NCBI GenBank assembly: GCA_034002925.1
Contig: JAVEZP010000004.1
Span: 16,626-80,625 of the forward strand
DNA: 64,000 nucleotides
Reading direction: 5' to 3'
Origin: Patescibacteria group bacterium
Lineage (GTDB): Bacteria; Patescibacteriota; Patescibacteriia; Patescibacteriales; UBA12465
This document shows, in pieces, positions 6,797 through 33,736 of the stretch; positions within the stretch are counted from its first letter, which is position 1; every line of letters begins with the position of its first letter. Under the pieces are notes generated by a model that saw only the letters and a list, made by a program, of their open reading frames with translations, was not told where the DNA came from and made no database searches. The position numbers were made by a program, and so were the translations under genes.

Positions 6797-6862
6797 ATTT
6801 TAGACAAAAATTTAAAAATCTGCTATAATAATGAGACATTTTATAAATTAATTAATAAATTT

Positions 6863-7420
6863 ATGACCACTTGGATTATTCTTGGTGCCATTATCTTGTT
6901 TGTATTAGTTTTGGTTGCTATTTATAATAATTTAATTCGTTCTAAAAATAGAGTTGATGAAGCTTGGAGCGATATTGATGTGCAATTAAAGCGTCGCCAC
7001 GACTTAATTCCTAATTTAGTGGAAACGGTTAAAGGCTATGCTGCTCATGAGCAAGGAACTTTTGAAAAAGTAATTGAAGCACGTAGTAATGCTATGGCTG
7101 CTCAAGATAGCAAAGATCCAAAAGCGGTGGAACAAGCAGAAAATGCTTTATCTTCAACTTTAAAATCTATTTTTGCTTTAGCAGAAAATTATCCAGATTT
7201 AAAAGCTAATCAAAACTTTTTAGAATTACAAAGAGAATTAACTGACACTGAAGACAAAGTAATGGCTGCTCGTCGTTTCTATAATGCTAATGTGCGCGAC
7301 TTTAATACTAAGTTACAAGTAGTGCCAACTAATATTTTTGCAAAACAGCTAGGTTTTAAGGCTTATGAGTTTTTTGAGGCAGCTGAAAATGAAAAGGAGA
7401 CAGTGAAAGTAGAGTTTTAA
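6863..7420 (+). CDS. lemA: LemA family membrane protein
   Basis: N-terminal TM helix followed by NNLIRSKNRVDEAWSDIDVQLKRRHDLIPNLVETVKGYAAHE, the LemA signature region. Confidence 0.9.
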   Translation: MTTWIILGAIILFVLVLVAIYNNLIRSKNRVDEAWSDIDVQLKRRHDLIPNLVETVKGYAAHEQGTFEKVIEARSNAMAAQDSKDPKAVEQAENALSSTLKSIFALAENYPDLKANQNFLELQRELTDTEDKVMAARRFYNANVRDFNTKLQVVPTNIFAKQLGFKAYEFFEAAENEKETVKVEF

Positions 7421-15415: not shown

Positions 15416-15868
15416 ATGATTGAAGGGGTAATAATAAAAAATTTAAAAAAATTTAGTGATGACAGAGGCTGGTTAACAGAAATCTATCGTCGTGATGAAT
15501 TAGATAGCTCTCCGGCTATGTCTTATGTGAGCCTGACTTTACCAGGAGTGGTTCGTGGCCCTCATGAACATGTTTATCAAAGTGATTATTTTATCTTTAT
15601 TGGACCAGGTAATTTTCGTCTCTATTTATGGGACAGGCGATCTGGTTCTGCTAGTAATGGCAAGAAAATGGAGATAGAGGTTGGAGTTGATAATCCTTGC
15701 GCTGTTTTAGTGCCACCAGGGGTTGTTCATGGTTATAAGTGTATTTCTGATGTTCCAGCATTGTCTATTAATTTACCAGATAAACTCTATAAAGGGGTGG
15801 GGAAGACGGATGAGATTGATGAGATTCGTTGGGAAGAAGATGAAAATAGTCCTTATATTATTAATTAA
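15416..15868 (+). CDS. RmlC-like cupin (dTDP-4-dehydrorhamnose 3,5-epimerase-like)
   Basis: FSDDRGWLTEIYR, GPHEH and VLVPPGVVHGY resemble RmlC, but it is short at 150 aa. Confidence 0.6.
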   Translation: MIEGVIIKNLKKFSDDRGWLTEIYRRDELDSSPAMSYVSLTLPGVVRGPHEHVYQSDYFIFIGPGNFRLYLWDRRSGSASNGKKMEIEVGVDNPCAVLVPPGVVHGYKCISDVPALSINLPDKLYKGVGKTDEIDEIRWEEDENSPYIIN

Positions 15869-15874
15869 AATAAT

Positions 15875-16270
15875 ATGTGTGTATTTTGTAAAATTGTTGC
15901 TGGAGAAATTCCGGCTTATAAAGTTTATGAAGATGAAAAAGTGTTGGCTTTTTTAGATATTAAACCAGTTCATCCTGGTCATATTTTAATTATTCCTAAA
16001 CAACACGTAGCTACTTTAGAAGCAGTCAGTCCCGAAACTTTACAGGCCTTAATTTTAATTGTTAAAAAATTAGGGGGCGCTTTAAAAGAAAAAATGAATT
16101 ATGAGGGTTATAATGTTTGTCTGAATAACGATCCAGTAGCTAATCAAGAAATTCCTCATTTGCATTTTCATATTATTCCGCGCGTGAGTGGCGATGGTTT
16201 AAAAGGTTGGCCACAGCAAGAATATGCCGCTGGAGAAGCTGAGAAAATACAAAATAAATTAAAGTGTTAA
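15875..16270 (+). CDS. HIT (histidine triad) family nucleotide hydrolase/transferase
   Basis: CVFCKI start region and the histidine triad HLHFHIIPR. Confidence 0.9.
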   Translation: MCVFCKIVAGEIPAYKVYEDEKVLAFLDIKPVHPGHILIIPKQHVATLEAVSPETLQALILIVKKLGGALKEKMNYEGYNVCLNNDPVANQEIPHLHFHIIPRVSGDGLKGWPQQEYAAGEAEKIQNKLKC

Positions 16271-16274
16271 AATT

Positions 16275-16691
16275 ATGCCTAACTTTTCTGGTGAATGCTT
16301 TGAACCTGTTATCAAAGCAAACAGTCAAGATGGTCTGCCTAAATCAAGAGGGCTTTATGAGCACGATATTGATAGTTTGGATTATTTGAGTGTCTGTGAG
16401 GCAGCAAAAATTTTGAGAACAGAAATTTATAATGAAGCATTGGGATTATTTAAAAATTCACCAAAAATGTTACAACAATTATTGTTTAAAGAGGGCGATA
16501 ATGATCATAAAAACATGTCGTTAGCCTTATTTAATAACAAATTTCCTTTGACTACTCTAAACTCTTTGTCAATTGTAAAAAGGTTTTTAAGGGATAGAGC
16601 TGATTTGTTGGTGCATCCAGATGAAAAATCAAAAATCCCTGCTTTACTTCATTTTGTAGAAAATTTAATGTCTCAAGAATTAAAAAAATAA
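16275..16691 (+). CDS. Hypothetical protein
   Basis: 138-aa ORF packed 4 nt after the HIT gene and 9 nt before rmlB; no recognisable motif. Confidence 0.4.
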   Translation: MPNFSGECFEPVIKANSQDGLPKSRGLYEHDIDSLDYLSVCEAAKILRTEIYNEALGLFKNSPKMLQQLLFKEGDNDHKNMSLALFNNKFPLTTLNSLSIVKRFLRDRADLLVHPDEKSKIPALLHFVENLMSQELKK

Positions 16692-16700
16692 AATTATTTT

Positions 16701-17663
16701 ATGAAATTATTAGTGACTGGCGGAGCTGGTTTTATTGGCTCTAATTTTATTCATTATTGGCTCAATAAATATCAAGATGATGAAATCATTAATCTTGATA
16801 GCTTAACTTATGCTGGTAATTTAGAGAATTTAAGCGATCTTGCCAATAATTCACGTTATCGTTTTATTAAAGGAGATATTAGTGATGCTCAGATTGTAGC
16901 TCAGGCAATGACAGGGGTAGATGTGGTCGTACATTTTGCAGCCGAAAGCCATGTTGATCGTTCTATCGTAGATAGCACTAATTTTATTCGTACCAATATT
17001 GAAGGTACCAGAGTTCTTTTAGAAGCGGCTAGAAGTTTAGGTAATATTCGTTTTCATCATATTTCTACAGATGAAGTTTTTGGCGCCTTAACTCTAGAAG
17101 CAGCTCCTTTTAATGAGCATAGTCCGTATGACCCTCGCTCCCCTTATAGTGCTTCTAAGGCGGCTTCTGATCATTTAGTGCGTGCTTATTTTCATACTTA
17201 TAAGCTACCGATTACTATTTCTAATTGTTCAAATAATTATGGCCCCTATCAGTTTCCAGAGAAACTAATTCCTCTCTTTATCACTAATTTGCTTGATCAA
17301 AAAAAATTACCACTTTACGGTTCTGGTTTAAATGTGCGTGACTGGATTCATGTTGATGATCATAATCGTGGAGTTGAATTAATTATTAAAAAAGGCAAAA
17401 TTGGTGAAACATATTGTTTGGGGGGCAATAGTGAGAAAAATAATTTAGAAATGAGTCATTTAATTTTGCAGTTAATGGGTTATGGTGAGGAAATGATTGA
17501 ACATGTGAGTGATCGCTTGGGCCATGATTTGCGTTATGCCATTGATTTTAGCAAAGCTAAAAAAGATTTAGCTTGGGAGCCAGAAATTAAATTAGAAGAT
17601 GGTTTAGCAAAAACGATTGAGTGGTATAAAAATAATGAAGCTTGGTGGCGAACTTTGAAATAA
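16701..17663 (+). CDS. rfbB: dTDP-glucose 4,6-dehydratase
   Basis: VTGGAGFIGSNF, HFAAESHVDRS, YSASKAASDHLVRAY, and the C-terminal WYKNNEAWW. Confidence 0.9.
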   Translation: MKLLVTGGAGFIGSNFIHYWLNKYQDDEIINLDSLTYAGNLENLSDLANNSRYRFIKGDISDAQIVAQAMTGVDVVVHFAAESHVDRSIVDSTNFIRTNIEGTRVLLEAARSLGNIRFHHISTDEVFGALTLEAAPFNEHSPYDPRSPYSASKAASDHLVRAYFHTYKLPITISNCSNNYGPYQFPEKLIPLFITNLLDQKKLPLYGSGLNVRDWIHVDDHNRGVELIIKKGKIGETYCLGGNSEKNNLEMSHLILQLMGYGEEMIEHVSDRLGHDLRYAIDFSKAKKDLAWEPEIKLEDGLAKTIEWYKNNEAWWRTLK

Positions 17664-18149: not shown

Positions 18150-18199
18150 TAAGGCTACTAAAGTAAGTATTTATTAGTAATTTTTTGTTTTTTTATCTT

Positions 18200-19207
18200 A
18201 TGTTTATTAAGCGCATTGGAATTGATTTAGGCACAACTTATACCTTGGTTCATTTGCCAAAAAGGGGCATTGTTATTAATGAACCATCTGTTGTAGCGGT
18301 GTCAGTGGATGACAATAAAATTTTAGCAGTGGGTAACGAAGCGCGCGATATGTTGGGCAGAACTCCCGACACCATTGTAGCAGCTAGACCGTTAAAAGAT
18401 GGAGTGATTGCTGATTATCGTACTACCGAAGCGATGATTCGTTATTTTATCAACAAAACCTTAGGAGGTATTAGGTTATTTCGTCCGGAGGTGATGGTGG
18501 CAGTGCCAGCTGGTATTTCTTCTACTGAAAGAAGGGCGGTGATTGAGGCTACAATTGCTGCGGGGGCAAAAGCCGCATATATCATTAAAGAGCCAGTGGC
18601 AGCAGCTATTGGTGCTGATATCCCCATCGGTTCTGCTACTGGTCATATGATTATTGATATTGGTGGTGGCACAGCAGAAATGGCAGTGATTTCTTTAGGC
18701 GGAGTGGTGGCCTCTACTTCAGTGCGGGTAGGTGGCAATAAGCTTGATGCTGCTATTTTAGAACATGTGAGAAAAAAATATAATCTGGCTATTGGCGAAA
18801 GAACTGCCGAAGAAATAAAAATTAATATTGGTTCCGCTTTGTTTATGGAGGATAAGTTGTATATGGAAATTAGAGGTCGTGATATTGTGACTGGCCTACC
18901 TAGAAGCATCACTGTCTCTAGCGATGATGTGACTGAGGCTATCCAAAATGAGTTAGAAGCAATTATTGGAGCTGCTAAGAAAGTTTTACAAAAAACACCA
19001 CCAGAATTAGCGGCTGATATTATTGATAAGGGTATTATTTTATCTGGTGGCAGTGCTTTGTTACGCAATATCGATCAGCTCGTTGCTCGAACAACTGGAG
19101 TGCCCGCCTATATCGCTGATGATGCGTTGCTGTGCGTAGCTAAAGGCACCGGCATTGCTTTAGATAATCTTGATTCTTATAAACGTAGCATTTTAGCGAC
19201 TAAGTAA
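18200..19207 (+). CDS. mreB: MreB paralog (actin-like)
   Basis: GIDLGTTYTLV, VINEPSVVAV, DIGGGTAEMAVISLGG, GIILSGGSALLRNID. The ATG at 18200 is preferred over the TTG at 18185. Confidence 0.9.
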   Translation: MFIKRIGIDLGTTYTLVHLPKRGIVINEPSVVAVSVDDNKILAVGNEARDMLGRTPDTIVAARPLKDGVIADYRTTEAMIRYFINKTLGGIRLFRPEVMVAVPAGISSTERRAVIEATIAAGAKAAYIIKEPVAAAIGADIPIGSATGHMIIDIGGGTAEMAVISLGGVVASTSVRVGGNKLDAAILEHVRKKYNLAIGERTAEEIKINIGSALFMEDKLYMEIRGRDIVTGLPRSITVSSDDVTEAIQNELEAIIGAAKKVLQKTPPELAADIIDKGIILSGGSALLRNIDQLVARTTGVPAYIADDALLCVAKGTGIALDNLDSYKRSILATK

Positions 19208-20508: not shown

Positions 20509-22551
20509 ATGAAAAAACTAATAACATCTTTTTTTATATTATTTCTCGTTTTAGCACTACCCGCCGGTGCTAGTTTTTTGCCGAACGATCCTTATTATAA
20601 AAACCAATGGTATTTAACCAGAATTAAGGCTATTTCAGCGTGGGAAAAAATTAGTCGCAGCCCCAGTATTACTATCGCGGTGATCGATTCTGGTATTGAT
20701 ATTAATCATCCAGATTTAAAAGATAATATTTGGATAAATACTAAAGAAATACCAAATAATAATGTTGATGATGATCGTAATGGTTTTATTGATGATGTTT
20801 ATGGTTGGGATTTTGTCAACAACATACCTGATCCATCACCAAAATTTGAAGAGGGCTGGACAGAATCAGGCGTGGCCCATGGCACTATTATTGCTGGCAT
20901 TATTGCCGCCACTGGTAATAATCAAGAAGGTATAAGTGGTGTTACTTGGGAGGCTAAGATTATGCCACTACGTGCTTTAAATGATCAAGGAGAGGGCCGA
21001 ATGAGCGCAGTGATCAGAGCTGTCGATTACGCGGTTCATAATGGGGCTGATATTATTAATCTTAGTTTTGTTGGTTTTAGCTATAATCAAGCCCTGCAAG
21101 AAGCTCTGCAACGCGCGTATGAAGCTGGCGTTATTGTGGTTGCTGCTGCTGGCAATGAACAAGAAGGTGGGGAAGCTTATAATACTGACGATCAGCCAAT
21201 TTACCCCGCTTGTTATAATGGTCGTAATGGAGAAAATATTGTATTAGGAGTAGCGGCGAGTGATGCTTTGGATCAAAAAACAGATTTTTCTAGTTATGGT
21301 TTTAATTGCATTGATATTACTGCTCCAGGTGTTAGTTTTTTTAGTACTATTCCAGCTGGTAGTAATGCTTTAGAGGAAAATAAAATTTATGATGGTTTTT
21401 GGTCGGGAACTTCTATGGCAACGCCAATTATTAGTGGATCATTAGCTTTAGTAGCGGAAATAAATCCCCAACTTCAACCAACAGAAATTGTTAATATTTT
21501 ATTACAATCAGCTGATAATATTAGTCGTTTAAATCCTAATCATCTTGGTCAGCTAGGTTCTGGGCGGGTAAATTTGGAAAGAGCTTTAATGACAGCTCAG
21601 GAAAGATTATATACTCGTTTAGGGCGCCTATTAATTAGTCCTGCTGCTAAATCTGATTTAAGTGAAATGAGTACTAGCACCTTAGCTGTCACAGAAAAAA
21701 ATGGTGCTATTATTAATCAATTTGATCTACCTGAAGCTTTAGCTGGTGTGTTTGCAGCTGGAGACGTTGACGGCAAAGGAGATGATGAAATTATTGCCGC
21801 TGCTCCAGCTGGACAAGAACCTTATGTGAGTATTTATGGCGCTGATAGCACTTTAAGAGGAAAATTTTTAGTGTATGATAAGAATTTTAAAGGAGGTTTT
21901 TCTTTAGCAATAGCTGATGTGACCGGTGATGGTTTAGAAGAAATTATTGTTGGCGCTGGAGCTGGCGGCGGTCCGCATGTACGTATTTTTGATCATAAAG
22001 GAGTTTTAAAAGGTCAATTTTTTGCTTTTGAAGCTTCCTTTAGGGGTGGTGTGAGAGTGGCTGCTGGTAATATTGATGGTGTAGGAGCGGCAGAAATTAT
22101 AGTCGCTCGTGGCCCAGGAGCTCAGCCGGAAGTAAAAATTTTTGATCGTCGTGGCAATCTTTTTGGTGTCTTTTTAGCTTATGAAGAATCTTTTAGAGGA
22201 GGATTACAAGTAGCAGTTGCTAATGTTGATGGACGTTTAGATCGTAACAAAGAGGAGATTATTGTTTCTTCAGGTATAGGCAGAGAGCCTTTAGTGAAAG
22301 TTTTTTCTAATAAGGCAATTCTTAAATACTCTTTTTTAGCTTTTCGTCAAAATTGGCAAGGCGGTGTTAATTTAGCAGCAGGCGATTTGAATAATGATGG
22401 CCGAGCTGATATTGCGGTTGCAGCTCAAGCTGGAGCGACACCTCATGTACGCGTTTTTAGTGGCACCGGCATTTTACAGGAATCATTTTATTTTTACCCC
22501 ACCGACTATAGTGGTGGTGTTAATATTGGTATAGCTCATTTTATTAATTAA
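20509..22551 (+). CDS. Secreted subtilisin-like (S8) serine protease with C-terminal FG-GAP repeat domain
   Basis: Signal peptide MKKLITSFFILFLVLALPAGA. Catalytic triad contexts VIDSGID, HGTIIAG, GTSMATP. About five ~60-aa D-x-D-G-containing repeats at the C-terminus. Confidence 0.85.
   Translation: MKKLITSFFILFLVLALPAGASFLPNDPYYKNQWYLTRIKAISAWEKISRSPSITIAVIDSGIDINHPDLKDNIWINTKEIPNNNVDDDRNGFIDDVYGWDFVNNIPDPSPKFEEGWTESGVAHGTIIAGIIAATGNNQEGISGVTWEAKIMPLRALNDQGEGRMSAVIRAVDYAVHNGADIINLSFVGFSYNQALQEALQRAYEAGVIVVAAAGNEQEGGEAYNTDDQPIYPACYNGRNGENIVLGVAASDALDQKTDFSSYGFNCIDITAPGVSFFSTIPAGSNALEENKIYDGFWSGTSMATPIISGSLALVAEINPQLQPTEIVNILLQSADNISRLNPNHLGQLGSGRVNLERALMTAQERLYTRLGRLLISPAAKSDLSEMSTSTLAVTEKNGAIINQFDLPEALAGVFAAGDVDGKGDDEIIAAAPAGQEPYVSIYGADSTLRGKFLVYDKNFKGGFSLAIADVTGDGLEEIIVGAGAGGGPHVRIFDHKGVLKGQFFAFEASFRGGVRVAAGNIDGVGAAEIIVARGPGAQPEVKIFDRRGNLFGVFLAYEESFRGGLQVAVANVDGRLDRNKEEIIVSSGIGREPLVKVFSNKAILKYSFLAFRQNWQGGVNLAAGDLNNDGRADIAVAAQAGATPHVRVFSGTGILQESFYFYPTDYSGGVNIGIAHFIN
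21750..22548 (+). repeat. About 5 tandem FG-GAP-like protein repeats (coding)
   Basis: Recurrent pattern: GD(V/I)DG.G..EII......G..P.V.(I/V)F...G.L...F.A(F/Y)...F.GG(V/L). Confidence 0.6.
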
Positions 22552-23600: not shown

Positions 23601-23629
23601 AAAACCAGCTAATTAATTTAGCTGGTTTT
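23601..23629. terminator. Bidirectional intrinsic terminator between convergent genes
   Basis: AAAACCAGCTAA-ttaat-TTAGCTGGTTTT. Confidence 0.65.
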
Positions 23630-24686
23630 ATGTTAGGGCGTAATGACGTAGTGCCTCACTCAGGGCTTTTTTGTTTCCTGGCGGAAATAATTTTAAATCA
23701 AGATGTGGCTCTAATTCGGGAATACCGCCTAAATTAGAAGCAATAGCACTAAGTTGATATCTAGATGCTTCCCATAAAATGGTGGGGGAGTTTTCGTAAA
23801 CAGTGGAGGGCATAACTACACAGTCATGGCTTTTAAGAGCGCTTTCCATTTGTTCTCTATTAAGATGTCCTAAATATTGTAAATTCTTTAATTCTTTACT
23901 TACTTGTATTACCTGATGCAATAATCTACCTTTACCAGCAATACTTAAAGATGCTTGAGTGGGATTTAATTTAGTATCTTTCCAGGCGGCAATGAGCAGA
24001 TTAAGGCCTTTGTGATCCTCTAATTGACCAGCAAAAAGAAAACGTACTGGTTTGTTTTTTTCTTTAGTGTTTGTTTTCAAATCAAGTTCAAAATTAGGGC
24101 GCACTACAGTTTTTTGTTGTTGAAAAAAATTATATTTTTGATGCAGATTAAGCAGCCACTGCGAGGGAGAGATGATCAGCTGACTGTGTTTAAAGATTTT
24201 TTTAGTTAGTGCTTGATAAAGATAGGCGAGACCAGAGTCTAATTTTTTTTCTTGACCAAAATAAAGTAATCCAGAAGGGTGTAATAATTGGATGTCGTGT
24301 AAAATATGATGATGTTTGATTTTTTGCTTATGTAGTATTTTAGGAAGTGCAAAACTCAGACCTAGAATATTATGAGTAATAAATAGGTCGACTTGTCTAT
24401 TTTGTAAAATTTTAGTTAATGCTTTTTGGTGAGGAGGGAAGAATAATTGAATAAAATACCAAGTTAATTTCTGGATGATATTCATGTTTGCCAACAGTTC
24501 ATAACGAGAATTAAGCCAGTATAAATCTTTTTCTTGTGGACGTGATGAGCTTGGTGTTTTTGTGCTAATCACAAAAACTTCATGACCTTGTTGGCGTAAA
24601 TCTGCAGCCATTTGTTGAGCAATAATTTCAGCACCACTGTCACGTCCAAAGGGTGGGTATAGATTATTTGCAATACCAATTATCAT
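23628..24686 (-). CDS. Glycosyltransferase (GT4-like, GT-B)
   Basis: N-terminal GG/GAE sugar-donor-loop-like region and C-terminal ENSPTILWEASRYQLSAIASNLGGIPE. Confidence 0.7.
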   Translation of the reverse strand: MIIGIANNLYPPFGRDSGAEIIAQQMAADLRQQGHEVFVISTKTPSSSRPQEKDLYWLNSRYELLANMNIIQKLTWYFIQLFFPPHQKALTKILQNRQVDLFITHNILGLSFALPKILHKQKIKHHHILHDIQLLHPSGLLYFGQEKKLDSGLAYLYQALTKKIFKHSQLIISPSQWLLNLHQKYNFFQQQKTVVRPNFELDLKTNTKEKNKPVRFLFAGQLEDHKGLNLLIAAWKDTKLNPTQASLSIAGKGRLLHQVIQVSKELKNLQYLGHLNREQMESALKSHDCVVMPSTVYENSPTILWEASRYQLSAIASNLGGIPELEPHLDLKLFPPGNKKALSEALRHYALT

Positions 24687-24689
24687 AGT

Positions 24690-25868
24690 TTATTTTAAAT
24701 TAGAAAATTCATCCAACATAGCATCTGCTATTTTATCCCAGGCATATTTTTCTTCGGCTAATTTTCTGGCAGCTAGTGACATGGTTTGACGCTTATTTTC
24801 GTCACTTAAAACTTTTTCAATCTTCTCAATCAAATCATCAACATTGCCAGGCTGACATAATAATCCTTCTTGTCCGTCTCTAAAAACACTCCGCACTCCA
24901 GGTAGATTACTGGCAATAACTGGCACCCCACAGGCCATAGCTTCAATCAGTACTAAACCAAAAGCTTCATGACTATTCACTGATGGCAGGAGTAGGAGAT
25001 CGCTTTTTTGATAGCTTCTGATGAGTTCATCTTCACTCACTCGGCCTAAGAATTTGACTTTTTTAGTTAATTTTAAGAGTTCTACCTGTTTTTCGTAGTC
25101 AGCTCTTAAGCTGCCATCTCCAATAATATTGAGCTGAAAAGGATAGGTAATTTGGCTAAGAGCTTTTAATAATATGGGCAGGCCTTTAAAATAGTGAGCT
25201 TCATCCAAACCGCCAACAAAAAGCAGAGAGTGACTGCCTTTTTTAATAAAAGTTTTATTAACAAATTCGACAATTTCATTAGCTTTTTGCAGGAGGGAAT
25301 TATTATTTTTTTGGATTTTTGGTTTAAATATTTCAGTTTCTACACCAAAAGGTACGGTTTTAATTTTATAAGGTTGATGTTTTTTAATTTTAGCTAAATG
25401 ACTTTGCTGAGCATAGTCTTCACTGGCAACAATTATTTTTACCGCTCTTTTGAATAATAGAGGACGGATTATTCTTGAGGGTAAGGCTAGTACTTTTTTA
25501 AAGCCCAATAAAGCAGGAGTATCCATGTGATAATGGATAACTAATTTTTGTTTAGGGCGAAGAATGTGCCACCAGAGGATAAGAGCGTCCACCCCAAAGA
25601 AAGGGTAATGAAGGTACAGTATATCATATTGCCAAAGACGAAAAGGCAAGAAAAAGGGCAGAGCTCCATGTCCAAAGCGTATTTTAGGATCCAAAAAAAC
25701 TACTTTTTGTTCTCCATTTTGTGTTTTGGCTTTTTCTAGTTGTTGTGGCTTAAGGGTAAAGGTTTTCACCTGGTGTTCTTGACTTAATATTTCCCCTAAG
25801 CGATAGGCACTTTGTCCGATGCCACCGGCGTATGGAGGAAAAGCACAGACAATTTGAGCAATTTTCAT
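24690..25868 (-). CDS. Glycosyltransferase family 4
   Basis: PPYAGGIGQ N-terminus and HEAFGLVLIEAMACGVPVIASNLPGV. Confidence 0.85.
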   Translation of the reverse strand: MKIAQIVCAFPPYAGGIGQSAYRLGEILSQEHQVKTFTLKPQQLEKAKTQNGEQKVVFLDPKIRFGHGALPFFLPFRLWQYDILYLHYPFFGVDALILWWHILRPKQKLVIHYHMDTPALLGFKKVLALPSRIIRPLLFKRAVKIIVASEDYAQQSHLAKIKKHQPYKIKTVPFGVETEIFKPKIQKNNNSLLQKANEIVEFVNKTFIKKGSHSLLFVGGLDEAHYFKGLPILLKALSQITYPFQLNIIGDGSLRADYEKQVELLKLTKKVKFLGRVSEDELIRSYQKSDLLLLPSVNSHEAFGLVLIEAMACGVPVIASNLPGVRSVFRDGQEGLLCQPGNVDDLIEKIEKVLSDENKRQTMSLAARKLAEEKYAWDKIADAMLDEFSNLK

Positions 25869-25869
25869 A

Positions 25870-26190
25870 CTATTTTTTTAAAGCAATTTCCCGTACTAAA
25901 TCGGTCAGATTCTTTTCTAATTTATTAATTTTGAGTCTTAACTTAAAAATGAAGTAGAATAAAGATAAAACAGCTAAATATAATAGAAAATTAATACCAC
26001 CACTAGAAAAACCTAATTGCGCAAGGAGAGCATCTAATTGTTTAATAAAAATAATAGCGATTGCTCCAAGCGACCAGAAGCTAAGCCAAAATAAGAATTC
26101 ATTGCCATTTATTTGTTTTTTCTTTCTTTGCTGATAAAGCCTAAGAACAAAGAGGAGGATAAAGAGTAGGGCGATTATTTGTTGTATCAT
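25870..26190 (-). CDS. Small membrane protein, DUF2304-like
   Basis: 106 aa: two N-terminal TM helices plus a C-terminal TM/coiled segment. Architecture and glycosyltransferase neighbourhood are typical of DUF2304. Confidence 0.5.
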   Translation of the reverse strand: MIQQIIALLFILLFVLRLYQQRKKKQINGNEFLFWLSFWSLGAIAIIFIKQLDALLAQLGFSSGGINFLLYLAVLSLFYFIFKLRLKINKLEKNLTDLVREIALKK

Positions 26191-26263: not shown

Positions 26264-26707
26264 ATGAAGCAAATTTCTTGGGAACAAGCTAAAGGGCTGG
26301 CTTGGTTCATCTTAGTTTATGCCCTAGTGAGAATTATTTTATCGACTCAAAGTATGGGTCAGCAGAATTTTGATTCTCTTGCTATTTTTTTTGGCGCTTT
26401 ATGTCTCAGTTGGCTGGTTTACACTGGCCAGAAAAATTCATTGGATTTGATGTTGTTGGCAGTTAGCCTGTTTTCAGTCTCGGCTTTTTTCTTTTTGCGC
26501 TGGGGGCACTTTGACGTGTTGGAAATCCAAATAGTCTTAGCTGCCTTAGGTGGAATTTCTTTTTTGATTTTCACTTTTCTGTTTATTAAGGCAATTTTGA
26601 AAAAAAGGAATCCTTATTGGCTAGTAGCGATTCGATTGATTTTTGTGTGGTTGTTAATGTTTGGCATGGAATTTCTGGTGTCTTATCTAAATCAATTAGA
26701 ATTCTAA
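26264..26707 (+). CDS. Hypothetical 4-TM membrane protein
   Basis: 147-aa hydrophobic ORF on the opposite strand within the glycan locus; TTGACA at 26192-26197 upstream. Confidence 0.45.
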   Translation: MKQISWEQAKGLAWFILVYALVRIILSTQSMGQQNFDSLAIFFGALCLSWLVYTGQKNSLDLMLLAVSLFSVSAFFFLRWGHFDVLEIQIVLAALGGISFLIFTFLFIKAILKKRNPYWLVAIRLIFVWLLMFGMEFLVSYLNQLEF

Positions 26708-26744
26708 GGCTAAATTTAAGCGGATGTGATTATCGTCCGCTTTT

Positions 26745-27404
26745 TTATTGGTTTATTTTTTGTATAATTAAATCTTTAATAATACGGATGCCACCACTAA
26801 ATTTTTGTCCAAATTCGTGATAAGTGACAGTAATAGGTACTTCTTTGATGCGCCAATTAGCTTGGCTTAATTTTATTAGAATTTCACTACAGTGAGCCAT
26901 ACCATTATTTTCTATCCTAAAGCTATTGGCTACTTCTTTAGTATAGGCACGAAAACCACTTTGAGGATCGCTAGTTTTGACTCCGAAAAAGCGATTGACC
27001 AATCGCCCTAAAGGCCAAAATATATATTTTTTTAATTTAGGTAAGTTATCTTGTTTTTGCAAGAAGCGAGAGCCAAAAACGACGTCTGCTTCTTGGTTTA
27101 AAATAGGTTGGATAATATTTGGTATTTCTGCGGCTGAAAATTGATCATCAGCGTCAAAGTGAACAATGATATCAGCTCCTAGTTTTAAAGCATAATCTGA
27201 GCCTGTCTGTAGAGCGGCACCTTGTCCACGATTAATAGGATGACGAAGAGTAATGGCTCCAGCTGCTTGAGCTAAATGATAGCTTTGATCTTGAGAGCAA
27301 TCATCAACTACTATCACAAAATCAACTTTATCTTTAACTTTATGTATTACTTGGCTAATGTGTTTTTCTTCATTCCAAGCTGGAATAATGCAGGCAATTT
27401 TCAT
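26745..27404 (-). CDS. Glycosyltransferase family 2 (polyprenyl-phosphate sugar synthase-like)
   Basis: IIPAWNEE, VVDDCSQD, HFDADDQ (DxD). The start is placed at the ATG of the ATGA overlap (27404-27402), not the upstream ATG at 27428. Confidence 0.85.
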   Translation of the reverse strand: MKIACIIPAWNEEKHISQVIHKVKDKVDFVIVVDDCSQDQSYHLAQAAGAITLRHPINRGQGAALQTGSDYALKLGADIIVHFDADDQFSAAEIPNIIQPILNQEADVVFGSRFLQKQDNLPKLKKYIFWPLGRLVNRFFGVKTSDPQSGFRAYTKEVANSFRIENNGMAHCSEILIKLSQANWRIKEVPITVTYHEFGQKFSGGIRIIKDLIIQKINQ

Positions 27405-28498
27405 AGATGATTTGAATATTTTGCCCAATCAGAAATTTCTTCTAAGCTAATAACTCCAGATTCTACTTTTTTAAGAGCTTCTAATATTAAGGGTTTATAG
27501 TCTTTTTTTAGAGAGCCATCTTGATTAAAGCTCATGATTTCAAATACAGCAATGCGATTATTTATTTCTTTATTTTGACAGCGTTTACAGCCATTATTAA
27601 AATAACTTTGTTTGGGCCAGTATTTTTTCGTAATTGGCCATTTCTTTTCAATAAATTGTCTTATTTTTGCATCTTCATTTAGTTTAGTGCGGCAATGCAA
27701 ACAAAGTTTATTAAACAATTTTTGAGTACTAATAAACAATAGGCGCTCGGTGATTGCTTGAGTGGAAAGACCAGCTGTTTTTAAACTTTGTAAGACTTTA
27801 GCTCCTGACTGATAGGGAAGGGTGATAATAACTAATTTACTCCCAGCTGCTTGCCATAGAGCTTTAAGTTCATCTGGACTTAAAGAAGCGTCACAAGCAA
27901 TGACATCACTATCAAGACGACTTAATAAAGATAGAGCATCTCTAATGTCACTAAACATCTTAGTTGGGATGACCGAAGCAGAAGAGATTTTGTGAGCAGG
28001 AAAATCTTCAAGAGAGTAGATAGATCTATTTTGATCTATTAATTGTAAAAAGGAATAATAAGTGCTACTAGCACCATTAGCGTTACTGGCATTGATTACA
28101 ATTAAACCAGTTTTTTTGTTTAGAGCTTTTTTAATTGTTTCTGCTTGTTGTTTATTGAGGCCAGAGCTGGTTAAGCTTTGTACTTGAATTTTATTTTCAT
28201 GTAGGCTAAGAATTAGCTTATCACCATTATTACCAGGTATAATACTCGCAGAACCACTAATCACTTTATTTCCATCAGTAATTTTGAAATTTTTATTATG
28301 CACAAACTCATGTTCTTGACTATTTAATAAAGAACGAAAAACGCCAATGATATGTTCTTCTAAATTAGCGTCTAGTTGTAAATAGCTGTTATCTCCATAG
28401 CGACATACAAAAAGTCCGTCTTTTTTTTCTAGACTAAGATGGCGATGCCCTTTTTCTTGAGCATAACGGCAAATTTTTTTAATTGTTTTGTGAGGCAT
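27401..28498 (-). CDS. GspE/PilB-family secretion ATPase homolog with degenerate Walker A, Walker B and His box (predicted pseudo-ATPase)
   Basis: Collinear with the T2SSE core. GLIVINASNANGASST replaces GPTGSGKST, RLDSDVIACDAS replaces RQDPDVIMVGEIRD, and AGSKLVIITLP replaces TGHLVLSTLH. The Zn site CLHC...CKRC and RIAVFEIM are retained. Confidence 0.7.
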   Translation of the reverse strand: MPHKTIKKICRYAQEKGHRHLSLEKKDGLFVCRYGDNSYLQLDANLEEHIIGVFRSLLNSQEHEFVHNKNFKITDGNKVISGSASIIPGNNGDKLILSLHENKIQVQSLTSSGLNKQQAETIKKALNKKTGLIVINASNANGASSTYYSFLQLIDQNRSIYSLEDFPAHKISSASVIPTKMFSDIRDALSLLSRLDSDVIACDASLSPDELKALWQAAGSKLVIITLPYQSGAKVLQSLKTAGLSTQAITERLLFISTQKLFNKLCLHCRTKLNEDAKIRQFIEKKWPITKKYWPKQSYFNNGCKRCQNKEINNRIAVFEIMSFNQDGSLKKDYKPLILEALKKVESGVISLEEISDWAKYSNHL

Positions 28499-28613
28499 AT
28501 GTTTATATTATAACATTATCAAGGAGATTTTAAAAATAGCTATTAATGTGATAAAATGTAATTAGCTTCTTGTTGTTCATTTTTTAACAACTAGGCTTAT
28601 TTATTATTTTTAT

Positions 28614-29027
28614 ATGTCTTTTTCTGCTTACAATACATGGTATAAGTTACAAAAAACTTTTGTTTCAGCTTTTAAATCTTATTGGCATTATTTACCTAAT
28701 CGTTGGTACTTATTGGTACTATTAATATTACAAGCTGGTCTTTGGTATTTAGCTTATCACATCTTTAATTTAGTGGGCGAAGAGCTCTTTGTTTCGCATT
28801 ATAATGTAGACTTTGGTATTGATGGCATTGGTAGTGCTCAACGTGTTTTTCAGATTCCTTTAATTACTTTAGTTATCTTATTTGTAAATATTGGACTAGT
28901 CGTGACTGTGGCTCGTAAACGGATTTTTCATTTTTTGGCCCACGCACTTACCCTAGCTACTTTATTATTACATTTGTTAGCTTATTTAGCTTTAATGTCT
29001 CTTTATTTAATCAATTTTCTTGCCTAA
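28614..29027 (+). CDS. Hypothetical membrane protein
   Basis: 137-aa ORF with 3-4 TM helices, ending 1 nt before the mraY ATG. Confidence 0.45.
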   Translation: MSFSAYNTWYKLQKTFVSAFKSYWHYLPNRWYLLVLLILQAGLWYLAYHIFNLVGEELFVSHYNVDFGIDGIGSAQRVFQIPLITLVILFVNIGLVVTVARKRIFHFLAHALTLATLLLHLLAYLALMSLYLINFLA

Positions 29028-29028
29028 T

Positions 29029-30078
29029 ATGACAATTTTCTACATTGTTAAAATATTGCTTTTATCTACTTTAGCTTTCATTTTTGCGATTGCGCTGACA
29101 CCACTGTTAACTAATTTTTTATATAAGTATAAGTTAGGTAAGCAGATTCGTAATAATGGCGAGACTCCCATTTTTAGTAAATTACATGCGCATAAAGCTG
29201 GGACTCCAACTATGGGTGGCATTTTAATTTGGGGTACAGTTTTGGTCTTTATGGTTTTTTTCTCCTTTCTAGCTGATGTAATGCCAGGGGAGATTTTTAA
29301 ATATTTAAATTTTTTCTCTCGTTCGGAAACTCTTTTGCCTCTAGGGGTATTGGTGGCGAGTGCTATTATTGGTTTAATTGATGATTGGTTGGATGTGAGT
29401 GGACATGGTGTCTTTGGCGGCGGTGGTTTAAAATTACGTCATCGGCTTTTAATTTATACTTTGATTGCTTTAGCGGGAGCAGCTTGGTTTTATTTCAAAT
29501 TAGATTGGACGGTATTTCATATTCCTTTTTTGGGTAATTTTGAAATTTCTTGGTGGTATATCCCAGTGTTTGTGTTTGTAATTGTAGCTACCTCTTTTTC
29601 GGTTAATGAAAGCGATGGTTTAGATGGTTTAGCGGGGGGCACTTTGTTAATTGCCTTTGCTGCTTATGCAGTTATTGCTTTTGCGATGGGTCGTTATGAT
29701 TTAGCTGCTTTCTGTGGGGTGATTTTAGGCGCTCTATTGGCCTTTCTTTGGTTTAATATTCCTCCAGCTCGTTTTTATATGGGGGACACAGGCGCGATGA
29801 GTCTCGGGGTGACACTGGGAGTAATTGCTATGCTGACAAATAGCGCTTTATTGTTGCCCTTAATTGGTTTAATTTTTATGATTGAATCTCTGTCAGTGAT
29901 TATTCAAGTGCTGTCTAAAAAATTACGGGGCAAAAAAGTATTTTTATCCTCTCCTATTCATCATCATTTTCAAGCGATTGGTTGGTCAGAGGCTAAAATT
30001 GTGATGCGCTTTTGGGTAATTGCTGCTTTGGGCACTATTTTGGCTTTAATTATTTTCTTAGTTGACCGTCAGTGGTAA
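29029..30078 (+). CDS. mraY: Phospho-N-acetylmuramoyl-pentapeptide transferase
   Basis: GTPTMGG, NESDGLDGLAGG, MGDTGAMSLG, PIHHHF. The ATG at 29029 is preferred over the TTG at 29020. Confidence 0.92.
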   Translation: MTIFYIVKILLLSTLAFIFAIALTPLLTNFLYKYKLGKQIRNNGETPIFSKLHAHKAGTPTMGGILIWGTVLVFMVFFSFLADVMPGEIFKYLNFFSRSETLLPLGVLVASAIIGLIDDWLDVSGHGVFGGGGLKLRHRLLIYTLIALAGAAWFYFKLDWTVFHIPFLGNFEISWWYIPVFVFVIVATSFSVNESDGLDGLAGGTLLIAFAAYAVIAFAMGRYDLAAFCGVILGALLAFLWFNIPPARFYMGDTGAMSLGVTLGVIAMLTNSALLLPLIGLIFMIESLSVIIQVLSKKLRGKKVFLSSPIHHHFQAIGWSEAKIVMRFWVIAALGTILALIIFLVDRQW

Positions 30079-30089
30079 TTTTGTTTTAC

Positions 30090-31235
30090 ATGTTTAAAAA
30101 AATACGCCATTTTCTAGAAAGAGCTAAAAAAGCGGGTCCAGCTGATCCGTGGCTTTTATTTTCTGCCGCCTCTTTATTAATTATTGGTTTAGTGATGCTA
30201 TCAAGTGCTTCCGCGATTGTCTCTTATGCCAATTTTCATAATACTTATCACTACTTTTTCAAACAATTATTTGCAGTGGTGGTGAGTTTAGGTTTTTTTA
30301 CTATTTTTTATTTTGTTGATTATCGCTTTTGGCGTCGTTTTGCGGTTTGGGCCTTATTAGCCTCGATTGTTTTATTAATTCTGGTTTTTATTCCTGGCTT
30401 ACGTTCAGAGTATGGTACGGCTAGAAGTTGGATTGTAATTTTTGGACAATCATTTCAGCCGGCCGAATTGGTAAAACTCACATTTTTAATTTATTTAGCT
30501 ACTTGGCTAGAAGCCAAAAAAGGACAACTACAAGAAGCGGGTAGTGGTATTATTCCATTTTTAAGTAGTTTATTAATTATTGGTGCTTTAATGATGGCTC
30601 AGCCTGATTTAGGTACTTTATTTATTATTTTATTTTCTTCTTTCGTGGCCTTTTTTGTTGCCGGCGGCAAATTTTCTCATATCATTATTACTATTTTACT
30701 AGCTATATTAGCTTTGGGACTACTGTTGTATGCGAGTGCTTCTTATCGTAATGCTCGTTTTCTGTGTTATCAAAACCCTAATTACAGCACTCAAAAAGAA
30801 TGTTATCAAATTAATCAATCTTTAATTGCGGTTGGTTCTGGCGGTTTGTTTGGTAGGGGCTTAGGAGAGAGTAGACAAAAATTTATGTATTTGCCTGAAG
30901 TTTGGGGAGACGCTATTTTTCCAATTATTGCGGAAGAGATTGGTTTTGTTTTCAGTACTGGCTTACTCATGTTGTTTGCTTTGTTGTTTTATCGAGGTTT
31001 AAAAATAGCTCGTTATGCACCCGATGCTTATGGCACAGCTTTGGCGGTGGGAATAGTGGCTTGGTTGTCAGTACAAACTTTTCTTAATATTGGCGGGATG
31101 GTGAATTTAATTCCGATGACCGGTGTCCCTTTGCCTTTTATTTCGGCTGGCGGGTCTTCAATCTTGTCCCTCGCTATGGCCATAGGTATATTAGCTAATA
31201 TTAGTAAACATGCACAGTATGAGCGCAGAAAATAG
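30090..31235 (+). CDS. ftsW: SEDS-family peptidoglycan polymerase FtsW/RodA
   Basis: Ten TM segments; QPAELVK, PDLGT, GLGESRQKFMYLPEVWGDAIF, VPLPFISAGGSS. Confidence 0.88.
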   Translation: MFKKIRHFLERAKKAGPADPWLLFSAASLLIIGLVMLSSASAIVSYANFHNTYHYFFKQLFAVVVSLGFFTIFYFVDYRFWRRFAVWALLASIVLLILVFIPGLRSEYGTARSWIVIFGQSFQPAELVKLTFLIYLATWLEAKKGQLQEAGSGIIPFLSSLLIIGALMMAQPDLGTLFIILFSSFVAFFVAGGKFSHIIITILLAILALGLLLYASASYRNARFLCYQNPNYSTQKECYQINQSLIAVGSGGLFGRGLGESRQKFMYLPEVWGDAIFPIIAEEIGFVFSTGLLMLFALLFYRGLKIARYAPDAYGTALAVGIVAWLSVQTFLNIGGMVNLIPMTGVPLPFISAGGSSILSLAMAIGILANISKHAQYERRK

Positions 31236-32319
31236 AAAAAAATTAGTCATTTTATCAGGCGGCGGTACGGGCGGTCCAAGCACTGTGCCCTTAGCTTTGG
31301 GTCAGGCTTTAAGGCTTAAAGATAAAGATATTGACTTTATTTTTATTGGCTCGAATCCTGTTTTAGAAAAAAAGTTATTTGTCCAAATTTTTAAAGAACT
31401 AGCTATTGAATACAAATCTTTTCCAGCGGGGAAATGGCGACGCTATTTTGCTTGGCAAAATTTTTTGGATATTTTTCGAGTGTTTTATGCTTTTGTCTTG
31501 GCTTATTTTTGGTTTAAGAAAATTAAGCCTGATTTATTTATTTCAGCTGGTTCTTTTGCTAGTGTTCCTTTAGCTTGGGCAGCTAAATTGCGAGGAATAA
31601 AAATTGTAATTCATCAGCAAGATTTGCGTCCAGGCTTAGCTAATCGTTTAATGGCCAAAACAGCCGATTTAATTAGCACGGCCTTTGAGCAATCAGTTAA
31701 AGATTATGGTCGCAAAGCTGTATGTTTAGGCAATCCACTGCTACAAGAACAATTGTCTCAAGATTTGTCTTCTCGGCTCTTGCAAGAGTTAAATTTAAAA
31801 AAAGAAGAACCAGTCTTACTATTAGCTGGTGGGGCTAGTGGAGCAGTGGCTTTAAATAAATTATTAGTAGAGGCTTTACCTTTTTTACCTCCTAATTGGC
31901 AGATTATTCATCAAACTGGTTCGGGCAAGACAATTGAGGTTAGTAGATTAAATTATTATCAGTTTGAAACTTTAGCCCATGAAGACTTTAATGCTTTACT
32001 CAATCGGGCCGATATAGTGCTGTCACGAGCGGGTTTAGGTGCTTTAACTGAATTTTCAGCTTTGGCTAAAACAGTAGTTTTAATACCAATGCCCCAAACT
32101 CATCAAGAAGATAATGCCCAATATTTTGCTCTTAAAAAAGCGGCTTTATATTGGCCACAAACAGAACTAAGCGGTGAAGTGTTAGCCCATAAATTACTTT
32201 CTCTGTGGCGAGATACAGAGCAGAGAAGAATGTTGCAAGAGAATATAAAGACAATCATGCCGCCTCAGGCTGCTACTAAAGGCGCTTCACTAATTTATAA
32301 ATTAATTTATGAATCTTAA
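31210..32319 (+). CDS. murG: UDP-GlcNAc:lipid I GlcNAc transferase MurG
   Basis: LSGGGTGG N-terminus and the RAGLGALTEFSALAKTVVLIP C-terminal region. Overlaps the ftsW end; an alternative ATG lies at 31219. Confidence 0.88.
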   Translation: MHSMSAENRKKLVILSGGGTGGPSTVPLALGQALRLKDKDIDFIFIGSNPVLEKKLFVQIFKELAIEYKSFPAGKWRRYFAWQNFLDIFRVFYAFVLAYFWFKKIKPDLFISAGSFASVPLAWAAKLRGIKIVIHQQDLRPGLANRLMAKTADLISTAFEQSVKDYGRKAVCLGNPLLQEQLSQDLSSRLLQELNLKKEEPVLLLAGGASGAVALNKLLVEALPFLPPNWQIIHQTGSGKTIEVSRLNYYQFETLAHEDFNALLNRADIVLSRAGLGALTEFSALAKTVVLIPMPQTHQEDNAQYFALKKAALYWPQTELSGEVLAHKLLSLWRDTEQRRMLQENIKTIMPPQAATKGASLIYKLIYES

Positions 32320-33736
32320 GAAATATCACAATTTTTATTTTATCGGCATTAAAGGCGTGGGCATGACTATGTTAGCTCAGTTTTTAAAAAATCTGAGTAA
32401 AGAAGTATCGGGCTCAGATATTAGTGATGTTTTTATGACTGATCAAGTTTTAAAGAAAGCTAAGATTAAAGTATGGGCTGGTTTTCAAGCGGAACGAGTG
32501 ATGAAACAAAAAATAATTATTCATTCTAGTGCCTATACCATTGAAAATAATGAGGAAGTAGCGGCTGCTTATGAGCAGGCAAAATTAGGCGACAGTATTG
32601 TCTTAAATTACGCTCAGGCCATCGGGGCTTTATTTAGTTCATATAAAGGTATTGCAGTGTGCGGTAGTCACGGTAAAACCACCACCTCTGCTTGGCTGGG
32701 TTTTGTCTGGCAACAATTAGCTTTATCGCCCAATATCTTAGTCGGTGCTAGAGTGCCACAATTAAAAGGCAGTGCGGTTTTAGGTAAATCTTCTTATTTT
32801 ATTGCTGAGGCAGATGAGTATCAAAACAAGTTGCAATATTTTAAACCTTATGGCGTAGTTTTAAATAATATTGAATTTGATCATCCGGATTATTTTAAAA
32901 GTCAGAAGGCCTATTATCAGGTCTTCGCTGATTTTGTTAAAAAAATCCCCAGTTCTGGGTTTTTAGTGGCCAACGCTCAAGATGAACAAGTGAAAAAAAT
33001 AATACAATTATCTCCTAGTCGAGTGATATCTTATGCTTTGGCTGATAATTTTAATACAGAGAAAGAGAAAACAGGACTCACTCTCTTAGCTCATTCTGTA
33101 GGCAGAAAAGGAATATATCAAACTTTTCAAGTAAATGATTTTGGCCAATTTAAAATTCGTCTTTTTGGTCGTCATAATATTGCTAATGCTTTAGCGGTGA
33201 TTGCTTCAGTTGTCGCTTTAGGTATTTCTCCTGAGCTGGTAAAAAAGCCTTTGGCTCAATTTAAAGGCACAGCTAGACGTTCCGAATTAATGGGTAGCTA
33301 TAAAGGAACTCTAATTTATGATGATTATGGCCATCATCCCACTGAGGTCTTAAAAACAATTCAAGCTTTTAAAGAATTTTATCCGTCAAAAAGATTAATT
33401 GTAATTTTTCATCCCCATACCTTTACTCGCACCAAGGCTTTATTTAAAGACTTTGTTTCCAGTTTTAACGCGGCTGATTATTTAGGAGTGCTTACCATCT
33501 ATGGCTCTGCTCGTGAAGTGCAAGGAGGTGTATCTAGTCAAGACTTAGTTAAAGCAATTAATAAGAGGAATAAAACTAGAGACAAGGCTAAACACCAGCT
33601 AAAAAAGGTAGTATATTTAAAAGATTTTGAAGTAGCGCTTAAATGGTTAAGGCAAGAAATTAAAAAAGATGATGTTGTTTTGCTCTTGGGGGCTGGTGAT
33701 GTTTTTAGAGTGGGAGAGAAGTTGCTGAAAAAATAA
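32309..33736 (+). CDS. murC: UDP-N-acetylmuramate--L-alanine ligase
   Basis: FIGIKGVGMTMLAQFL, GSHGKTTTSAW, EADEY, DDYGHHPTE. Confidence 0.9.
   Translation: MNLKKYHNFYFIGIKGVGMTMLAQFLKNLSKEVSGSDISDVFMTDQVLKKAKIKVWAGFQAERVMKQKIIIHSSAYTIENNEEVAAAYEQAKLGDSIVLNYAQAIGALFSSYKGIAVCGSHGKTTTSAWLGFVWQQLALSPNILVGARVPQLKGSAVLGKSSYFIAEADEYQNKLQYFKPYGVVLNNIEFDHPDYFKSQKAYYQVFADFVKKIPSSGFLVANAQDEQVKKIIQLSPSRVISYALADNFNTEKEKTGLTLLAHSVGRKGIYQTFQVNDFGQFKIRLFGRHNIANALAVIASVVALGISPELVKKPLAQFKGTARRSELMGSYKGTLIYDDYGHHPTEVLKTIQAFKEFYPSKRLIVIFHPHTFTRTKALFKDFVSSFNAADYLGVLTIYGSAREVQGGVSSQDLVKAINKRNKTRDKAKHQLKKVVYLKDFEVALKWLRQEIKKDDVVLLLGAGDVFRVGEKLLKK

Follow-up and report, generated by a model that had tools for sequence, protein, structure and literature searches.

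The DNA considered here is a stretch of 64,000 nucleotides from a Patescibacteria group bacterium (contig JAVEZP010000004.1, positions 16,626 to 80,625; hereafter the window), and its element of interest is a pair of minus-strand genes, one encoding a 365-residue protein related to PilB and GspE, the ATPases of the type IV pilus (T4P) and the type II secretion system (T2SS), and the other, directly downstream, a family 2 glycosyltransferase (GT2). An earlier note on the sequence had described the first as a degenerate ATPase paralog translationally coupled to the second. We located the open reading frame and all of the motif strings that the note had quoted (TGLIVINASNANGASSTYY at residues 130-148, RLDSDVIACDASLS at residues 194-207, AGSKLVIITLPYQS at residues 218-231, CLHC at 266-269, CKRC at 304-307 and RIAVFEIM at 315-322), and the ATGA in which the stop codon of the ATPase-like gene overlaps the start codon of the GT2 gene was likewise confirmed in the sequence. 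Translation from this ATG, at 27404, gives a GT2 of 219 residues, the orthologs having 219-220. The G+C content of the ATPase-like gene is 0.326, compared with 0.353 for the window, and an identical protein sequence is held at NCBI as MDX9779110.1 under the annotation [quoted passage not shown]. The coordinates of all features are collected in Table 1.

Membership of the T2SS/T4P ATPase family, which had been judged by eye, is borne out by profile searches. The protein matches Pfam T2SSE (PF00437) with an E-value of 1.4e-20 and 73.8 bits, above the cutoff of 24.9, and the NCBIfam models for GspE, PilB and TfpB with E-values of 1e-19 to 1e-25, falling far short of their equivalog cutoffs. An AlphaFold model built from a 147-sequence alignment (A4) has a predicted local distance difference test score (pLDDT) of 94.1 and a predicted template modelling score of 0.89, and supersedes a model from a 13-sequence alignment (A1) with a pLDDT of 51.6. 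When this model was compared with the PDB by Foldseek, the best matches were Thermus thermophilus PilF (5oiu), Geobacter PilB (5tsh and 5zfr) and Vibrio cholerae EpsE (1p9r and 1p9w), with E-values of 1e-26 to 1e-28, TM-scores of 0.76-0.80 for the best protomers and a sequence identity of ∼19-20%; PilT, PilU and DotB ranked far lower. The predicted structure thus superposes on the core of PilB and GspE, a bilobed unit of N2D and a RecA-like C-terminal domain (CTD), and this core is all that is present, with no N1D/MshEN domain in the protein.

Within this retained fold the catalytic residues have been replaced. The register was set by a phmmer alignment to EpsE (1p9r), in which GPTGSGKST of EpsE aligns with ASNANGASS, VGEIRD with CDASLS and GH..TLHTN with SK..TLPYQ, and in which both cysteine pairs are also aligned; the Walker A lysine is hence replaced by Ala-143 and the catalytic glutamate by Ala-204. 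A survey of the 84 canonical members of A4, using columns at least 80% conserved among them, gave the same picture for the window protein and its close relatives (the window clade). Walker A is changed at five of its seven aligned positions, the lysine among them. In the Walker B region the glycine, the catalytic glutamate and the arginine and aspartate that follow it (R655 and D656 in A4 numbering), all 100% conserved in the canonical sequences, are Asp-203, Ala-204, Leu-206 and Ser-207. Both the phmmer alignment and the A4 columns place Lys-221 and Pro-228 at the two His-box histidines, and alignment position R690 is Ser-238. The N2D has lost its motifs as well, with ASDIH reading HRHLS, QDG reading HNK and the two arginine-finger columns (99% arginine in canonical proteins) occupied by Ser-83 and Ser-98. 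An intact P-loop in another register was looked for by regular expression, and neither the protein nor any of its 12 close homologs contains GK[ST], [AG]xxxxGK or hhhhD[DE].

The claim that every nucleotide-handling motif is degenerate holds for the catalytic residues, which are replaced in the register that the note had proposed, and is slightly too broad for the surrounding pocket. Glu-164 and Asp-165 of the Asp box (E-D-P-x-E) are kept, with the proline changed to Phe-166 and the last glutamate to Ala-168 (a glutamate in 5 of 12 orthologs), and Arg-194, Asp-196 and Asp-198, directly before Walker B, are kept in the window clade. Gly-142 is invariant in all 147 sequences of A4. Retention of the tetracysteine site and of RIAVFEIM was correctly noted, with Cys-266, Cys-269, Cys-304 and Cys-307 invariant in the 13 close sequences, and Gln-259, Glu-320 and Gly-348 (C-terminal helix region) are kept in the window clade. 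Without the lysine of the P-loop, the catalytic glutamate, either histidine of the His box or the arginine fingers of N2D, ATP hydrolysis should not be possible, and the conclusion that the protein is catalytically incompetent stands on sequence grounds. The capacity to bind ATP has most likely been lost too, judging from the same substitutions and from the model.

Despite these losses, the gene is maintained. Twelve homologs at 45-99% identity carry the same substituted motifs, and the 13 close sequences have an intact frame, a length of 362-369 residues and 88 invariant columns. The ratio of nonsynonymous to synonymous substitution rates (dN/dS, by the method of Nei and Gojobori) between the window gene and its ortholog in locus L022, at 85% amino acid identity, is 0.090; for other genes of the same two loci it is 0.050 (GT2), 0.014 (MraY), 0.126 (MurG) and 0.133 (the second of two family 4 glycosyltransferases, GT4). 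The gene is under purifying selection and is no relic. Its product, catalytically stripped yet selected and conserved across species, is what is understood by a pseudoenzyme, and we refer to it below as the pseudo-ATPase.

The coupling to GT2 extends well beyond this genome. We examined 19 loci with a member of the family, the contexts of the distant members being retrieved member by member, and a locus search with a further alignment (A3) yielded two metagenome loci. The stop codon of the T2SSE-like gene overlaps the GT2 start by 4 nucleotides in 10 loci and lies within 2-5 nucleotides of it in 8 more, giving 18 of 19, and GT2 and a DUF2304 gene were both found in each of the 17 loci of sufficient extent. 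The common order has, on one strand, the gene for a membrane protein of ∼137 residues followed by mraY, ftsW and murG (and murC) and, on the divergent strand, the T2SSE-like gene, GT2, DUF2304 and two GT4 genes, beyond which come an epimerase, an S8 peptidase, another GT4 and an MreB paralog. This order is seen in the loci of close orthologs (L001, L003-L011 and L022), and in distant loci at 24-32% identity (P0118/L013, P0056/L014-15, L016, L017, P0081/L018, P0099/L019, P0067/L020-21 and P0092/L023-24).

Across these loci the genes have diverged to very different extents. Identity is 69-90% for MraY, 57-80% for GT2 and 90-96% for the glycan-region MreB paralog (MreB2), and falls to 24% for the T2SSE-like protein. 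The mean Kimura distances are 1.45 for the T2SSE-like protein, 1.27 for the 137-residue protein, 0.46 for GT2 and 0.25 for MraY, making the first two the fastest-evolving genes of the locus. After removal of the MraY/FtsW background, the residual rate of the pseudo-ATPase correlates with that of GT2 (0.50) and of the first GT4, GT4a (0.38), more than with that of the 137-residue protein (0.09), and negatively with that of MraY. The pairs are not independent, so that such covariation is weak evidence, and it slightly favours GT2 and GT4a over the 137-residue protein as putative co-evolving partners.

The note had also remarked on the lack of flanking pilus genes, and this proved true on a larger scale. 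No canonical pilB was found in the window by tblastn, nor any pilC/gspF, pilM/gspL, pilin/pseudopilin or secretin gene by Pfam search, and no platform, PilM/GspL or pilin gene is present in the ∼20 kb covered at any related locus. The labels "ATPase, T2SS/T4P/T4SS family" or "PilB" on members of this family inflate the number of pilus motors counted in the candidate phyla radiation (CPR).

A search of 1.84 billion representative sequences with a profile of the 13 close sequences returned ∼45 clusters of short relatives (∼333-390 residues, with a few fragments) whose alignment begins at residue 1. None of them has the T2SSE-type Walker A, and many, such as P0056, P0059, P0062 and P0118, still have a generic GxxxxGK[ST]. 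The invariant Walker B glycine is changed to aspartate in 100%, 76% and 67% of three subgroups of the family and in none of the canonical proteins, a change that yields hhhhDD-like motifs. With GK[ST] kept and such a Walker B acquired in the distant relatives, nucleotide binding may persist there. The Walker A lysine is missing throughout the window clade, P0054 and P0055 included, and P0063, P0081 and P0099 have apparently each lost it on their own. The Cys-rich subdomain is gone from one subclade, of ∼335 residues.

Scores against T2SSE fall in steps along the family, from 281 bits for P0085 through 202 (P0092), 156 (P0067), 120 (P0056), 105 (P0118), 90 (P0081) and 84 (P0099) to 74 for the window protein. 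P0085, encoded at 5482-7113 of locus L025 in the position that the pseudo-ATPase occupies in the window, has 543 residues with both MshEN and T2SSE domains, an intact lysine and catalytic glutamate and no His box, and appears to be an evolutionary intermediate. A neighbor-joining tree on which the motif states were mapped, and which is not robust to long-branch effects, gathers the short proteins into one group, away from canonical PilB, and the intermediates branch close to the base of that group; common descent of the family is supported independently of the tree by the shared genomic locus. The order of loss would be the His box and arginine fingers, then the catalytic glutamate, then the P-loop lysine and finally the Zn subdomain. 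Source labels in the family, whose hosts are uncultured, are "Patescibacteria group" and "Candidatus Falkowbacteria"; the labels "uncultured Gammaproteobacteria" and "Planctomycetes" on some records of metagenome-assembled genomes (MAGs) clash with these and with the common synteny and are probably mislabels.

Several candidates for the family were rejected. P0087 (397 residues), which has lost the His box alone and keeps its arginine fingers, groups with canonical PilB and was treated as lying outside the family; on its short contig the gene is not beside GT2. The protein of L012, from a "Bacilli" MAG, at 24% identity and near murG/murB, is a canonical ComGA-like ATPase with GATGTGKST, GEIRD and GH..HTN intact. 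Tandem T2SSE proteins of ∼1000 residues (P0061-P0083 and P0170 of the representative library, a few of which have a second half with a variant Walker A) were considered as a possible "Rosetta stone" in which a dead copy is fused to a live one and dismissed, as both halves are canonical-like: they score 425-608 bits (349 for one second half) with a hidden Markov model (HMM) of canonical PilB and 45-101 bits with an HMM of the dead family, and their high rank in the profile search came from the summing of domain scores. Elsewhere in the tree, the full-length PilB-like proteins P0101, P0176 and P0130 (∼533-558 residues) have alanine, serine or aspartate for the catalytic glutamate and have lost the second histidine; PilB may have given rise to pseudo-ATPases on more than one separate occasion.

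The partner gene can be placed more closely. GT2 matches Pfam Glycos_transf_2 with an E-value of 7.9e-23, and its best NCBIfam match is PpgS (NF058614; 8.2e-49 and 166 bits, with the equivalog cutoff of 370 not reached), followed by AglJ, Dol-P-hexose transferase and ArnC; among solved structures it comes nearest to Pyrococcus DPMS (5mlz, 8e-14) and ArnC. These matches, and the DUF2304 protein alongside, agree with the assignment made in the note, and GT2 is predicted to be a polyprenyl-phosphate-type enzyme of the DPMS/ArnC/PpgS class. In distant clades DUF2304 is contiguous with GT2. In the window clade a gene for a 147-residue membrane protein, which could be a small flippase-like protein, is inserted between them on the opposite strand, and with the hairpin that separates it from GT2 it leaves the pseudo-ATPase and GT2 as a two-gene unit. 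Upstream of this unit, in the divergent intergenic region (28499-28613), is a promoter-like site whose -10 element (TG-TATAAT) ends 9 nucleotides before the ATG of the pseudo-ATPase, so that the mRNA may be leaderless or nearly so. The 137-residue protein that begins the opposing unit is encoded upstream of mraY in 18 of 18 related loci.

Table 1. Features at the pseudo-ATPase locus, in window coordinates
Feature	Coordinates	Strand	Description
GT4 glycosyltransferase	23628..24686	-	352 aa
GT4 glycosyltransferase	24690..25868	-	392 aa
DUF2304 small membrane protein, GacJ/Rv3632-like	25870..26190	-	~106 aa; Pfam DUF2304 1.8e-20; putative activator of GT2
147-aa membrane protein	26264..26707	+	No family match; between GT2 and DUF2304; window clade only
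Hairpin	26718..26742		9-bp stem; between convergent GT2 and 147-aa genes; terminator-like on + strand
GT2 glycosyltransferase	26745..27404	-	219 aa; predicted polyprenyl-phosphate sugar synthase type, GacI/PpgS/DPMS/ArnC-like
ATGA stop/start overlap	27401..27404	-	Pseudo-ATPase gene/GT2 gene
PilB/GspE-like pseudo-ATPase	27401..28498	-	365 aa, ATG start; N2D ~aa 1-110, CTD ~aa 125-365
Tetracysteine (Zn-site type) subdomain	27578..27703	-	C266/C269 to C304/C307
His-box remnant	27809..27844	-	aa 219-230, GSKLVIITLPYQ; both histidines replaced (K221, P228)
Walker B region remnant	27878..27919	-	aa 194-207, RLDSDVIACDASLS
Walker A remnant	28064..28090	-	aa 137-145, ASNANGASS; lysine to Ala143
Promoter-like site	28507..28534	-	TTTAAA-16-TG-TATAAT; consensus match only; within 115-bp divergent intergenic region
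137-aa protein	28614..29027	+	Predicted three transmembrane segments; no Pfam/NCBIfam match; first gene of mraY-ftsW-murG-murC unit
mraY, ftsW, murG, murC	29020..33736	+	Lipid I/II synthesis; divergent from pseudo-ATPase operon

Upstream of the glycan genes, at 15416-17663 (plus strand), lie genes for a dTDP-glucose 4,6-dehydratase (480 bits with TIGR01181, exceeding its cutoff), together with those for an RmlC-like cupin and a PfkB kinase. By sequence, the region is consistent with a rhamnose-containing wall glycopolymer akin to the streptococcal paradigm. No GT-C (GacL-like) transferase and no Wzx/GtrA-type flippase was recognised in the window. Two MreB paralogs are encoded 5 kb apart on the plus strand (11992-13038 and 18185-19207), one with MreC and a likely MreD and the other beside a GT4 in the glycan region; the latter, at 90-96% identity, is the most conserved gene of the related loci. 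A 680-residue S8 peptidase with faint FG-GAP repeats (20509-22551, plus strand), whose best NCBIfam match is a type VII secretion mycosin, below cutoff, is kept in the related glycan loci. The remainder of the window is housekeeping in character (SecA, aminoacyl-tRNA synthetase genes, MreBCD, ribosomal proteins, EF-G, EF-Tu and ComEC), with a Fic/DOC protein (44167-45309, plus strand) and the ComEC competence channel (46687-48162, plus strand) amid the ribosomal protein operons, and Rfam and tRNA scans of the window returned nothing.

As a possible conceptual parallel, degenerate NTPase-like or non-motor cytosolic proteins that regulate or scaffold a membrane glycosyltransferase complex are known from cellulose secretion, in the N-terminal domain of BcsE and in BcsQ; these are RecA/MinD-like proteins unrelated to T2SSE, and their partner is a different, processive synthase. 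The pseudo-ATPase itself resembles PilB, GspE (EpsE) and PilF in its profile match, its N2D and CTD core, its Zn-site cysteines, Gln-259, Glu-320 and Gly-348 and its C-terminal helix, and differs from them in lacking N1D/MshEN, the catalytic motifs, ASDIH and QDG and any pilus neighbors, and in being operonic with GT2. A conceptual precedent is PilB of Myxococcus xanthus, which in its ATPase-deficient, nucleotide-free form acts as a pilus-independent signal for exopolysaccharide production (Black et al. 2017, PMC5544727; review PMC11656802). By analogy, both would be PilB-type proteins tied to surface polysaccharide without ATP hydrolysis. The M. xanthus protein is, in contrast, an active pilus motor with a second job that signals through the Dif chemosensory pathway, whereas the window protein, constitutively "dead", is the product of a gene that lies in a glycan operon, with no pilus genes in the vicinity.

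The glycosyltransferase side of the locus has closer counterparts in GacI/GacJ of Streptococcus pyogenes and PpgS/Rv3632 of Mycobacterium tuberculosis, with which it shares a GT2 of ∼220 residues, a DUF2304 protein of ∼106 residues and dTDP-rhamnose genes nearby. The DUF2304 proteins of those systems, GacJ and Rv3632, are small membrane proteins that join GacI and PpgS in complexes and greatly raise their activity (bioRxiv 10.1101/180810). The described systems have no PilB-like protein; the window GT2, for its part, falls below the PpgS equivalog cutoff. In the literature on CPR type IV pili, PilB pseudo-ATPases, DUF2304 and Patescibacteria glycosyltransferases we found no description of a dead PilB-like protein of this kind or of a T2SSE-GT2 pairing, in keeping with the earlier note, which had not recognised the pairing as a described system.

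We consider it about an even chance (a probability of roughly 0.5) that the pseudo-ATPase is a PilB/GspE-derived, non-catalytic partner or regulator of a glycolipid-synthase module. The protein has retained the N2D and CTD fold and the tetracysteine knuckle of the T4P/T2SS motor while losing catalysis, and GT2 with its GacJ-like DUF2304 protein would make a polyprenyl-phosphate-sugar donor for the decoration of a cell-wall glycopolymer. Like the note, we infer a role as scaffold or regulator: the pseudo-ATPase may act as a cytoplasmic docking scaffold or as an allosteric regulator of the membrane-associated GT2 module, and docking would reuse the surfaces by which PilB meets membrane platform proteins. 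It might also help to apportion the common polyprenyl-phosphate carrier between this module and the lipid I/II synthesis encoded by the divergent genes beside it.

Certain observations weigh against this reading. All of the loci come from one syntenic lineage in which ∼20 kb around the gene is collinear, so that common descent, and not a functional requirement, may account for part of the adjacency; as a sign of function, the conserved adjacency is suggestive and no proof. At about three times that of GT2, the evolutionary rate of the pseudo-ATPase is unusual for an obligate subunit. At L025, the locus of the near-canonical P0085, GT2 lies 1.3 kb downstream with one gene between, and in the window clade DUF2304 is split from GT2 by the opposite-strand gene and has an apparent promoter of its own.

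The same collinearity, which makes synteny alone weak evidence of function, leaves some room for an accessory of type IV pili, in which a dead PilB copy would bind PilC or PilM, or mix into rings of canonical PilB encoded elsewhere, and so tune extension, the adjacency to GT2 being inherited gene order. Descent from PilB is plain enough in the retained N2D and CTD fold, tetracysteine site and C-terminal helix region, and T4P systems with several PilB copies are common in Patescibacteria (PMC11623550). We nevertheless think this explanation unlikely: there is no T4P gene in the window, the stop/start coupling with GT2 has been held while the protein diverged to 24% identity, the protein lacks the N1D/MshEN domain, of which many PilB regulators make use, and the Zn subdomain is lost in one subclade. 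The T4P study of TM7x, a different CPR lineage, lists PilB1, PilB2 and PilT alone within the pilus loci (PMC11623550), and hence no third PilB-like component. A decaying, functionless relic of pilB, to which the loss of all catalytic motifs and the fastest rate in the locus might point, can be given next to no weight. The dN/dS of 0.09 and the conservation of the orthologs, with their intact frame, near-constant length and invariant columns, effectively refute it, and the ∼45 representative clusters of similar length and the confident predicted fold speak against it as well.

Two further alternatives keep a selected function for the protein and assign it differently, and we regard each as improbable. 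In one, the remodelled pocket (Gly-142 followed by a serine or threonine, Glu-164 and Asp-165 of the Asp box, and Arg-194, Asp-196 and Asp-198) would be a site for a nucleotide, a nucleotide-sugar or the phosphate-bearing head group of a lipid, whose binding would be reported to the glycosyltransferase module. The invariance of Gly-142, the persistence of several pocket-lining acidic residues and the distant members with GK[ST] and an hhhhDD-type Walker B, which make a nucleotide-dependent ancestor plausible, are in line with such a switch, as is the MshEN domain of the earliest form, whose fold is of a type that binds c-di-GMP in MshE and PilF (PMC11731258). Against this, neither the lysine nor the two arginine fingers nor the two histidines survive in the window clade, where Walker A has lost five of its seven aligned positions, and the former lysine position varies (alanine or leucine, and valine in P0054 and P0055), a variation that tells against a new ligand site under conservation. 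In the other, the pseudo-ATPase would work with the 137-residue protein and MraY, FtsW and MurG on peptidoglycan precursors, for instance as a scaffold of wall synthesis, and GT2 would be a bystander. The 137-residue gene and then mraY are divergent from the pseudo-ATPase, across a short shared intergenic region, in 18 of 18 loci, the 137-residue protein is the sole other fast-evolving gene, and in L025 the T2SSE-like gene stays beside the mraY unit. The translational coupling is nonetheless with GT2 and not with the dcw genes, and the residual rate correlations, a weak test, are near zero with the 137-residue protein and negative with MraY.

The origin of the pseudo-ATPase appears to have been played out at one fixed locus, beginning with a full-length MshEN-bearing ATPase that kept its lysine and glutamate and had no His box, passing through short forms with GK[ST] and an hhhhDD-type Walker B that may still be nucleotide-binding switches, and ending in the fully eroded window clade. 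We advance more tentatively the wider proposal that a Falkowbacteria-type branch may have exapted a T4P/T2SS motor, which without catalysis would serve a GacI/GacJ-like glycosyltransferase complex as its dedicated subunit or regulator, linking glycopolymer decoration to the lipid I/II pathway that competes for the same carrier. PilB/GspE ATPases are regarded as obligate motors of pilus and secretion machines, and what is new here is a pseudoenzyme branch of that family with a new genomic partner. Were the proposal correct, it would define a new class of glycosyltransferase partner and a new accessory protein for pathways of the GacI/GacJ type, would show that the docking scaffold of a motor can be reused for envelope glycan synthesis, and would provide, in living relatives, a natural "time series" of how a pseudoenzyme evolves, with an active MshEN-PilB at one end and a fully dead scaffold at the other.

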